From the NCBI RefSeq assembly GCF_045037415.1, contig NZ_CP173438.1: 64,000 nt of DNA; one strand, given 5' to 3'. This DNA comes from Escherichia coli. GTDB taxonomy: Bacteria > Pseudomonadota > Gammaproteobacteria > Enterobacterales > Enterobacteriaceae. Positions 33,001 through 36,000 of this stretch are shown here, in pieces. The position numbers are program-made. Numbering within the stretch: the stretch's first letter is position 1; every line of letters begins with the position of its first letter.

Positions 33001-36000
33001 TTTATCTTTCTCATTATTCCCGCAAGATTCCCCTGGAATGCAATCGTAGCCACATCGCTACTGCTCGGTTAACATAGTGCTACTCAGGCGGTTAATACGC
33101 CGTTATTGTTTCCAGGGAGATTATTTGTGTCTCAGCTTTGTCCCTGTGGTAGTGCTGTCGAGTATAGCCTATGTTGCCACCCTTATGTGTCTGGTGAAAA
33201 GGTTGCACCTGATCCAGAACATCTCATGCGTTCGCGTTACTGCGCTTTTGTGATGCAAGACGCAGATTATTTAATAAAGACCTGGCATCCATCTTGTGGA
33301 GCAGCGGCGTTACGTGCCGAATTGATTGCCGGATTTGCGCATACTGAATGGTTGGGATTGACCGTATTTGAACATTGCTGGCAGGACGGCGGCGATATCG
33401 GATTTGTCAGTTTTGTTGCTCGATTTACCGAGGGTGGCAAAACAGGTGCAATAATTGAACGTTCGCGATTTTTGAAAGAAAACGGTCAATGGTACTATAT
33501 TGACGGTACACGTCCGCAGTTTGGCCGCAACGATCCCTGCCCTTGTGGTTCAGGTAAAAAATTTAAAAAGTGCTGCGGCCAATAATGGTTGACGGTACGG
33601 TTTAGCAAACACTCTCAACAAGGTTTTTCCAGCAATGCATTCACTCCAACGTAAAGTTCTGCGTACTATTTGTCCGGACCAAAAAGGTCTGATCGCACGT
33701 ATTACCAATATTTGCTACAAGCACGAGTTAAATATCGTGCAGAACAATGAATTTGTAGATCATCGTACCGGGCGCTTTTTTATGCGCACGGAACTGGAAG
33801 GGATTTTTAATGATTCCACCCTGCTGGCAGATCTCGATAGCGCATTGCCAGAAGGCTCCGTGCGTGAGCTGAATCCTGCCGGTCGTCGCCGGATAGTGAT
33901 TCTGGTCACTAAAGAAGCACATTGCCTTGGCGATTTGCTGATGAAAGCCAATTACGGCGGCCTGGATGTCGAAATCGCGGCAGTTATTGGTAACCACGAT
34001 AATTTACGTTCTCTGGTTGAGCGTTTTGATATTCCGTTTGAGCTGGTAAGCCATGAAGGGTTAAGCCGCAACGAGCACGATCAAAAGATGGCGGATGCCA
34101 TTGATGCTTATCAACCTGACTATGTGGTGCTGGCGAAGTATATGCGGGTATTAACGCCGGAATTTGTGGCTCGCTTCCCGAATAAGATCATCAATATTCA
34201 CCATTCCTTCCTGCCAGCGTTTATCGGCGCACGTCCTTATCACCAGGCCTATGAGCGTGGCGTGAAGATTATTGGCGCAACCGCTCACTATGTGAATGAC
34301 AATCTGGACGAAGGTCCAATCATCATGCAGGACGTTATTCATGTCGATCATACCTACACAGCTGAAGATATGATGCGCGCAGGTCGTGACGTCGAGAAAA
34401 ACGTCTTAAGTCGTGCGCTATACAAAGTACTGGCGCAGCGCGTCTTTGTTTACGGTAATCGGACGATTATTCTTTAATCGTCAGCCAAAATAACTGGTTA
34501 GCTTTAATCCGTTACGGATGAAAATCACGCAACCAGTTCATTTTTCTCAACGTAACACTTTACAGCGGCGCGTCATTTGATATGATGCGCCCCGCTTCCC
34601 GATAAGGGAGCAGGCCAGTAAAAAGCATTACCCCGTGGTGGGGTTCCCGAGCGGCCAAAGGGAGCAGACTGTAAATCTGCCGTCATCGACTTCGAAGGTT
34701 CGAATCCTTCCCCCACCACCATCACTCGATTCCATTATCAAACCTTCGGCTTCTCCCCCATTCGCCGTAAAAACTGCTGCTGTAGCCTCAACAAATCCGC
34801 TAACGTCAACAACTGATAATCCAGACCTTGCTGGCTGGCAATTTGCGCAATAATGCGGCTTAGCGCCGAATAATGGCGATGATGCCAGTGAGGAAACAGA
34901 TGATGGGTAAGGTGCAGATTAATCCCACCCAGCCAGTAGCCAAGCCATGCAGGTTGCGGCGTCCAATCAAAGGTGGTAGCAAAGGTATGCGCCAGTCTGC
35001 CCACGGGCATTTTGCCCTCTTCTGGTGGTAACTGCGTATGTCCCTTCGCCCAGTGCGTTCCAATAATCAACGTCACAAAAATCAATGACGCCAGCAGCTG
35101 GCTGAGCAGATAAGTCAGCAGGATGGTCATAAAACTAAAATCAGACAAAAGCCAGGGAATTATCAGACACAGCGCACAATGCGCCAGTTTCCCGGCTAAG
35201 AAATATCCCCAGCCAGCAAAGCCTCGCAGGGCCAGATGTCGCGTGACCGGCGTAAACCCTGCGCGATCGAGCCAGTCCACTACCCAGATATACCAGGGAA
35301 AGGTGAGCGCGGCGACCAGTGGCCAATAGCGATGTTGCTGGCGCATAAAAGGTCGCCACCGTTGCCACGGCGTCTGGCGAAGAATGCCATTTTCTGCTGT
35401 ATCTGGATCGTAAAATTCAATATTGGTAAAACCGTGATGAAAGCGAACGTGGCGCACCCGCCAGCAGTCCGGATCTAGCCCCATAGGAAAAGCAACCCAC
35501 CGGTTAAGCCGGGCATTGGTCTTTTTACCACGCAAAAACGCATCATGCGAAGCGTCATGCACCACATTGACCGCTAACAACATGGCGCAAAACATCATCG
35601 CGAGATACCACAACAGATACAGTCCCCATTGACGTTGAAATAACGCCAGTAAGTAACAGGAGAAACAAGCAATAATCAACACCGCCATTTTGACGAATGC
35701 CCATCCGTCGGCATACCGATGATCGCCTGATTTCGCCAGATAAACTTTCGTACCGCTTTGCAGTTGTTTCACCAGTTGTGGATCATCGGCAGGAAAAGTG
35801 ATTAACCTGTCGGGATTAAACAGGTTCATACTGTTTCCTTAGCGATTTACGTCCTACGCCGATTACAAATAACAGGCAATGGGCCAGCAGAATACCCACT
35901 AATCCCTTCCAGAGCAGAGTACTCCATGAACACATATAGACAATAAAATAGAGCAGTGACAACGTCACAGAGCACCACAAAATCATACCCCAATGCTGCC

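Follow-up and report, generated by a model that had tools for sequence, protein, structure and literature searches.

The seven-gene block beside tRNA-Tyr in Escherichia coli is probably a long-resident accessory operon rather than a tRNA-targeted island

Multi-kilobase DNA that starts beside the 3' end of a tRNA gene and varies from strain to strain raises the question of whether it arrived as a mobile island. In extraintestinal pathogenic Escherichia coli, integrase-bearing islands are linked to tRNA genes, for example at selC, asnT, pheV and leuX. The locus considered here lies in E. coli contig NZ_CP173438.1, within a stretch of 64 kb (the window, meaning the whole of the DNA analysed, whose positions are used throughout). 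ARAGORN finds a sole tRNA gene in the window, a tRNA-Tyr(GTA), and a block of seven biosynthetic genes separates it from narI. The block resembles tRNA-linked islands in its strain-variable presence, in its start beside a tRNA 3' end, and in its enrichment among strains taken to be extraintestinal pathogens of phylogroup B2. It differs from them in having no integrase, no direct repeats of the att type and no compositional signature, in a junction that is orthologous across species, and in an alternative allele that is unrelated filler DNA and not an empty attB site. We conclude that the block is not mobile, and is no mobile island despite the adjoining tRNA; it is very probably a long-resident accessory operon that alternates with the filler by homologous recombination, and the collapse of the tRNA array next to it is very probably a separate matter.

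Seven overlapping or abutting open reading frames (ORFs) on the minus strand occupy positions 34738-41619 and are followed by a 127-bp spacer, narI and narJHG (Table 1). RefSeq annotates identical DNA with biosynthetic enzymes only, among them a sterol desaturase/hydroxylase (the 374-aa protein) and a PAP2 phosphatase (the 200-aa protein). A preliminary description of the window had the last block gene, which encodes a desaturase, stopping at 34738, and the ORF calls agree: its stop codon is at 34738-34740 on the minus strand, 16 nt from the CCA end of the tRNA. In the window the junction reads CCACCA followed by TCACT.GATTCCATT, and in 10 of 10 Escherichia block loci it is orthologous, with CCACCA followed by T(C/T)(A/T)CT(T/C)(G/A)ATTC... 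and leading into the desaturase stop codon. The same description placed the start of the island at nucleotide 17 after the tRNA, which is correct for the end of the gene but not for the breakpoint. When the window is aligned with the K-12-type strain A1, homology stops 1-6 nt beyond the tRNA-like CCACCA end, so that the polymorphic segment begins at ~34722-34727; it ends exactly at the narI stop codon (41747), where homology with block-less genomes restarts.

Table 1. Coordinates of the tRNA-Tyr locus, the seven-gene block and the conserved flanks in the window
Feature	Position	Strand	Basis or remark
purU, conserved left flank	33635-34477	+	ORF; RefSeq annotation of identical DNA
tyrT promoter (-35 TTTACA, 16-nt spacer, extended -10 TATGAT)	34559-34586	+	
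tRNA-Tyr(GTA)	34637-34721	+	ARAGORN, Rfam; tyrT-type upstream sequence
16-nt junction TCACTCGATTCCATTA, from tRNA end to desaturase stop codon	34722-34737		Orthologous in all Escherichia block alleles
Membrane fatty-acid desaturase family protein, 363 aa	34738-35829	-	Pfam FA_desaturase on orthologues
Fatty-acid hydroxylase / sterol desaturase family protein, 374 aa	35816-36940	-	Pfam FA_hydroxylase
PAP2 family protein, 200 aa	36933-37535	-	RefSeq; Pfam PAP2_3/PAP2
F390-synthetase-related adenylate-forming enzyme, 428 aa	37532-38818	-	TIGR02304
Metallo-beta-lactamase (MBL)-fold hydrolase, lactonase-like, 268 aa	38815-39621	-	Pfam Lactamase_B
Extended short-chain dehydrogenase/reductase (SDR), annotated NAD-dependent epimerase/dehydratase family, 338 aa	39599-40615	-	
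KAS III-like ketosynthase, 335 aa	40612-41619	-	PRK07204, 332 bits vs cut-off 402
narI-to-block spacer	41620-41746	-	
narI, conserved right flank	41747-42424	-	

The block was searched for traces of mobility. By RefSeq annotation and family search, the seven ORFs that fill it include no integrase or transposase, and no integrase was found in the syntenic loci examined from E. fergusonii, E. albertii, Citrobacter tructae, an E. coli-like genome (L007, GCA_964052785.1) and a non-coli Escherichia (L062). The 25-nt 3' end of the tRNA occurs once in the window, even when 3 mismatches are allowed, and a repeat search of the window revealed no direct or inverted repeat bounding the block beyond chance-level matches. 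No empty attB-type site was found in block-less genomes, which hold an unrelated 184-bp filler at this position. The earlier statement that the far boundary carries no integrase, transposase or tRNA-derived repeat is thus borne out by annotation and by both searches. A comparison of the block with its surroundings revealed native codon usage. Its GC content is ~0.51-0.52, its GC at third codon positions (GC3) is 0.548 compared with 0.529+/-0.073 for the other window genes (40 long ORFs), and neither GC, GC3 nor codon usage sets the block apart from the remainder of the window (Mann-Whitney p=0.6 and 0.9).

The same seven genes, in the same order, separate narI from the tyrT array in E. fergusonii, E. 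albertii, L007, E. whittamii, Escherichia sp. E1V33, Escherichia sp. MOD1-EC7003 and L062. At least seven Escherichia lineages share the order narI-block-tRNA array-purU. The F390-related protein of the window shares 93% identity with its homologue in E. fergusonii, 89% with that in E. albertii and 76% with that in C. tructae. These comparisons show that the block was at this gap, with its exact junction, before the Escherichia species diverged. In one E. fergusonii genome (GCA_008064895.1, positions 10389-11491 of locus L058) the desaturase gene is split into ORFs of 210 and 194 aa and is apparently a pseudogene.

Outside Escherichia, other Enterobacteriaceae carry an 11-gene form of the block at this gap. 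C. tructae contains the seven genes plus four more, which encode a second OleD-like SDR, an HpnI-like GT2 protein, a 187-aa protein and an MGT-family glycosyltransferase. All eleven genes are also present at the gap in a Leclercia metagenome-assembled genome, with purU beyond the tRNA array, and adjoining narI in C. gillenii, whose locus ends before purU. At the gap in Enterobacteriaceae bacterium UBA5654, Enterobacter sp. BIGb0383 and Kosakonia oryzendophytica, a four-gene core is combined with a glycosyltransferase module, and genes for PAP2, hydroxylase and desaturase are missing. The Serratia plymuthica cluster lies beside narGHJI with no tRNA nearby. The core order KAS-SDR-MBL-F390, which the window block displays with a TIGR02304 protein above cut-off, is kept from Escherichia to Burkholderiales in the recovered loci except for two short contig fragments. 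The same gap holds an AsnC-type regulator and an EamA transporter in Klebsiella (positions 7679-9126 of locus L065) and a 509-aa Sel1/TPR-repeat-like ORF in Salmonella (9159-10688 of locus L068), indicating that it accumulates lineage-specific content.

Divergence of the block was compared with that of its neighbors by the Nei-Gojobori method, with the window as reference. Synonymous divergence (dS) of the block is 0.27 for E. fergusonii and 0.47 for E. albertii; the corresponding values are 0.23 and 0.37 for narIJHG, and 0.31 and 0.56 for purU. Over 8.9 kb the window is 100% identical to many genomes, some of them labelled O25b:H4-ST131 (sequence type 131), and the block is 98.8% identical to those of ATCC 25922 and NRG 857C, all of which labels we take to denote phylogroup B2. 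Between ST131 and ATCC 25922, dS amounts to 0.03 in the block and to 0.037-0.043 in its flanks. The ratio of nonsynonymous to synonymous divergence (dN/dS) for individual block genes relative to E. fergusonii is 0.08-0.16. Because block dS tracks that of the flanks and dN/dS is low, the block has co-diverged with its neighbors under purifying selection. An origin described earlier as fixed or ancient is therefore well founded, given the orthologous junction in at least seven Escherichia lineages, the occurrence at the same gap in four other genera, and the flank-like dS.

Within E. coli, the block is present in 672 of 5,426 complete genomes (12%), where it is reported as chromosomal and at the narI-tRNA gap, and the filler is present in 4,739 (87%). 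Any block match (673 genomes) and the filler together account for 5,412 of the 5,426 genomes, and the locus is therefore essentially two-allelic; that block and ~184-bp filler are two alternative alleles in Escherichia is shown or strongly implied by these data. The K-12-type order, as in strain A1, is purU, tyrT, tyrV, two RtT units, the 184-bp filler and narI. The filler is non-coding and consists of repetitive extragenic palindromic (REP) elements and a stem-loop narI terminator. No homologue of it was found in any block-bearing locus examined, barring generic REP similarity in the E. albertii spacer, and none of these loci has both alleles together, with filler between block and narI. In 1,051 genomes the filler is only 90-95% identical to the A1 type, which implies that the filler allele is old within E. 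coli. The first ~25 nt past the tRNA-like end are weakly similar between block and filler (44 alignment columns, 21 of them tRNA-derived); this similarity was considered as a deletion scar and judged too weak.

Several individual genomes depart from these two forms. MS1170 has an IS4-family transposase inserted in the narI terminator of the filler (positions 5349-6548 of its locus), and the filler matches of H5, UPEC132 and ECE170 are likewise interrupted or IS4-annotated. ISApl1 is inserted in the block of FXCREC145, strain S7 carries a truncated block (query positions 2098-7020), and two block matches in the complete E. coli genomes are on plasmids.

Both alleles are found on nearly the same backgrounds. 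L062 and L063 belong to one non-coli Escherichia species and have flanks that are 98.3-99.3% identical, but the former carries the block and the latter the filler; the L063 filler shares its left ~20 nt and 44-bp terminator with the K-12 filler. MS1170 (filler) differs from ATCC 25922 (block) at 1 of 1,150 positions in the left flank and 1 of 1,480 in the right flank. With near-identical flanks carrying either allele, block and filler behave as interchangeable cassettes that homologous recombination can exchange. A precedent is provided by the O-antigen loci between galF and gnd, in that alternative cassettes are exchanged there by the same process. The present locus resembles them in having two unrelated sequences with sharp edges at conserved flanks, each occurring in at least two species and on backgrounds that are nearly the same, and differs from them in having only two alleles, one of which is a 184-bp non-coding filler.

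Block alleles have themselves been exchanged between lineages. In Escherichia sp. MOD1-EC7003 (positions 7200-14100 of locus L013) the block is 98.5% identical to the window, compared with 94-97% for the flanks and 95% for the KAS gene alone, which points to a recent inter-lineage homologous exchange of most of the block. L007 displays the opposite pattern: at positions 7185-14081 its block is only 93.5% identical whereas its flanks are 97.6-98.8% identical, and dS is 0.23 for the block as against 0.13 for narIJHG. None of the 5,426 complete E. coli genomes contains the L007 block allele. The data strongly imply that block and filler replace one another through homologous recombination in their conserved surroundings, with the tRNA/RtT repeats at one edge and narI at the other, and not through site-specific integration. 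Since deletion is unable to create the filler and no integrase is present, allele replacement by homologous recombination is the simplest mechanism.

The single tRNA-Tyr has a history that can be read apart from that of the block. In K-12 the tyrT operon has the order tyrT-tyrV-rtT/tpr, with 178-bp repeats that each end in a tRNA 3' segment. The window retains the tyrT promoter followed by tRNA-Tyr(GTA), and the same repeat family explains its copy-number changes; it differs from the K-12 operon in being down to one tRNA with no RtT or tpr, and in having a convergent desaturase gene that ends 16 nt downstream where the usual rtT termination region is missing. ARAGORN and Rfam both support the single tRNA-Tyr with an intact tyrT-type promoter noted previously, and this promoter is base-for-base that of the tandem-tRNA E. 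coli loci L011, L012 (Z1323HEC0355) and L002 (A1). Neither the second tandem tRNA (tyrV) nor RtT units were found in the window, although both occur in relatives; in a search of 33000-43000, Rfam returned only the same tRNA-Tyr and no RtT small RNA. The 3' trailer of the window tRNA, TCACT, is that of the last unit of an array.

Genomes with the block differ in the number of tRNA and RtT units that precede it. One tRNA without RtT is found in the window (ST131-like), E. whittamii and E. albertii L006; two tRNAs without RtT in Z1323HEC0355, L007 and E. albertii L005; two tRNAs and one RtT in ATCC 25922; and two of each in E. fergusonii. In all, the block is preceded by 1 to 4 units, and arrays of 1 to 6 are present across all loci examined. 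By alignment, the window is Z1323HEC0355 minus one clean 119-bp unit comprising a tRNA and spacer, and Z1323HEC0355 is ATCC 25922 minus one RtT unit (~178 bp), with indel edges that fall within repeated sequence. Clean whole-unit indels with edges in repeats are attributed to unequal recombination between direct repeats. The single-tRNA junction is present in 392 of the 672 block carriers, a count made with a 195-nt query because a 165-nt junction query also matched two-tRNA genomes at 82% coverage. A further ~187 carriers (579 minus 392) have two tRNAs abutting the block, and in ~93 RtT sequence separates the tRNAs from the block. Genomes with the single tRNA contain only two tRNA-Tyr loci genome-wide. 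Unequal recombination between the identical 85-bp tyrT and tyrV would have removed one 119-bp unit in an ST131-associated subclade, later than and separately from the history of the block, leaving two tRNA-Tyr loci instead of three. Two variant tRNAs were observed. The first tRNA-Tyr of E. albertii L005 (14241-14325) has CACAG instead of CATCG in its variable region and is presumably of the tyrU type, and the second tRNA of Z1323HEC0355 (1410-1494) has ATAGAC instead of ATCGAC.

Other origins of the block have to be weighed against these data. An integrase might have inserted it at the tRNA-Tyr 3' end, with integrase and att sites decaying since; in favor of this, a tRNA-like 3' end borders the block in all the Escherichia genomes, partial copies of a tRNA 3' end recur within the tyrT operon as RtT units, and other genera hold different cargo at the gap. 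However, the seven ORFs fill the block with no integrase remnant, none is present in the syntenic loci examined, no tRNA-derived repeat marks the far end, and the partial repeats are on the tRNA-proximal side of the block, not the distal one. Moreover, the unoccupied site contains the filler and not a simple attB, base composition is native, and the Serratia cluster is linked to nar without a tRNA. We consider such an insertion highly improbable, and the tRNA targeting implied by the preliminary description is unsupported. That description also raised the possibility that a single event put the block in place of tyrV and tpr/RtT and left one tRNA. The window itself, which has the block and neither tyrV nor RtT, would fit this scheme. 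It is contradicted by the ~280 of 672 block-bearing E. coli that keep two tRNAs, with or without RtT, and by the complete series of arrangements ahead of the block: tyrT-tyrV-RtTx2 in E. fergusonii, tyrT-tyrV-RtT in ATCC 25922 and tyrT-tyrV in Z1323HEC0355. A block-less genome (H12) can also have a single tRNA. Replacement in one event is hardly credible.

If the block is the older state, K-12-type genomes could be products of a simple internal deletion. The preliminary description had foreseen a change in the direction of the event if most E. coli carried the block with K-12 derived; the block is indeed older at the genus level, but only 12% of E. coli carry it, and a simple deletion fails to account for the filler. 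The REP pair and terminator of the filler have no homologue in block alleles, deletion alone cannot make them, and the same filler ends occur in another Escherichia species. We regard simple deletion as improbable. A less remote alternative, though still an unlikely one, is that B2-type E. coli re-acquired the block, an ancestor of ST131 and ST73 having imported it into a filler-only background from another Escherichia lineage by homologous recombination. In favor of this idea, block alleles do cross lineages, as the contrasting block and flank identities of MOD1-EC7003 and L007 show, and the filler is both predominant in E. coli, including backgrounds with flanks nearly identical to those of ATCC 25922, and old in the species. 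On the other hand, the equivalence of block and flank dS between ST131 and ATCC 25922 places the block in their common ancestor, and no flank tract resembling a foreign donor is present beside the window block. Re-acquisition would in any case alter only the within-species history, not the ancient, non-integrative nature of the block.

A long-resident operon that alternates with the filler thus remains the reading we favor, and the following points weigh against it. The block alleles of L007 and MOD1-EC7003 have moved between lineages, so that vertical descent of the block in B2 may not have been unbroken. Block presence is patchy in every species sampled, a genome scan returned no species representative of E. 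coli, E. fergusonii, E. marmotae or E. ruysiae, and the unrelated cargo of Klebsiella and Salmonella leaves the state of the deep enterobacterial ancestor uncertain. As to function, the model given below depends on below-threshold family matches, and a literature search gave no paper on the cluster, nor one on an island at tyrT.

Signals on both sides of the block were also evaluated. RNA folding revealed a hairpin with a U5 tail (41690-41716, minus strand; z=-2.55) that lies ~30 nt downstream of the stop codon of narI. The structure is kept in E. fergusonii and, where the block is present, is likely to be the terminator of narGHJI. A scan for consensus terminators gave no hit in the narI-block spacer and so missed this hairpin; read-through from narGHJI into the block had been considered and was dropped once folding revealed the hairpin and U5. 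A candidate block promoter (TTGTAG...TATATG) and an AAGGAG ribosome-binding site were recognized by eye 5' of the GTG start at 41619. On the opposite side, there is no terminator-like site on the plus strand 3' of the tRNA before ~35375, and tyrT transcription may continue antisense into the desaturase gene. The spacer also contains a perfect 16-bp tandem duplication of ATGTTTGGTTTAGATA (41714-41729 and 41730-41745) that abuts the narI stop codon. This unit is single-copy in E. fergusonii (L003) and apparently so in the 98.8%-type E. coli blocks, whose alignments end 15 nt short.

The gene content of the block suggests a function in lipid metabolism. Among solved structures, the closest relatives of the KAS III-like protein are MxnB (4v2p, E=3e-49) and CorB (4yuc, E=8e-45), ahead of E. 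coli FabH (E=4e-29), so that by sequence similarity it is nearer to the former two. 4V2P is MxnB, which joins two long acyl chains (PMC5724707). In the KAS III-like protein of the block, a putative catalytic triad of Cys (NSSC), His (HQAS) and Asn (GNQV) was assigned by eye. The best NCBIfam models for the SDR are OleD-type 2-alkyl-3-oxoalkanoate reductases (E=2.5e-44 and 1.4e-42), with scores of 146-152 bits versus a cut-off of 580 that indicate an OleD homologue and not an equivalog. Lactonase models match the MBL-fold hydrolase at E=1e-9 to 1e-15, under their cut-offs, and the nearest NCBIfam model for the hydroxylase, OlsE (E=1e-18), is also under its curated cut-off. The adenylating enzyme is a full member of TIGR02304 (748 bits versus a cut-off of 252) but among solved structures has only weak similarity to PaaK. 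A transposon mutant of Pseudomonas syringae pv. actinidiae in a 'Coenzyme F390 synthetase' gene, IYO_RS29540, has been described (PMC9823363); it could not be tied to the TIGR02304 family.

The set as a whole is reminiscent of the OleABCD olefin/beta-lactone pathway: a condensing enzyme of the thiolase fold is combined with an OleD-like reductase and an adenylate-forming enzyme, and a hydrolase takes the position of OleB. Orthologues of OleA, OleB and OleC were not found in the block, where the KAS is FabH-type, the adenylating enzyme TIGR02304/PaaK-like and the hydrolase MBL-fold. The block also differs from OleABCD in that matches to Ole models are far under curated cut-offs, that PAP2, hydroxylase and desaturase genes are added, and that its relatives add glycosyltransferases. 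Our best guess from these similarities is a pathway of chain joining and tailoring. The four-gene core (MxnB/CorB-like KAS III, OleD-like reductase, MBL-fold hydrolase and PaaK-like adenylating enzyme) would join and process acyl chains through condensation, keto-reduction, carboxylate activation, and hydrolysis or cyclisation; the PAP2 protein, hydroxylase and desaturase would then modify the product to yield a specialised lipid or a metabolite resembling one, and relatives with four extra genes would add glycosylation. A bolder and rather doubtful extension of this model is that selection, and not drift combined with recombination, maintains block and filler as a long-lived trans-species polymorphism, and that the block makes an undescribed chain-joined lipid or pyrone-like metabolite by Ole-like, non-orthologous enzymes.

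A further discontinuity was observed on the far side of purU in E. fergusonii. The ychJ-rssA-rssB-galU stretch (15717-19410 of locus L003) is only ~76-87% identical to every other Escherichia lineage, with a dS of ~1.6, and the adjacent purU and narGHJI are ~93-96% identical. This pattern suggests that, in E. fergusonii, a recombined or imported tract has an edge between ychJ and purU.

Taken together, these results remove a false lead, in that adjacency to a tRNA does not make the block a mobile island, and they show that the K-12 state is neither ancestral nor a simple deletion. They document a locus with two alleles, which homologous recombination exchanges both within Escherichia species and between them, and a total of 392 complete genomes, some labelled ST131, with one tRNA-Tyr gene fewer than K-12. 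They also draw attention to a conserved, purifying-selected and apparently unstudied seven-gene operon of lipid type in pandemic ST131 and in the reference strain ATCC 25922. Were the polymorphism kept by selection and the product as proposed, the block metabolite would have a part in the biology of ST131 and other lineages that have kept the block.

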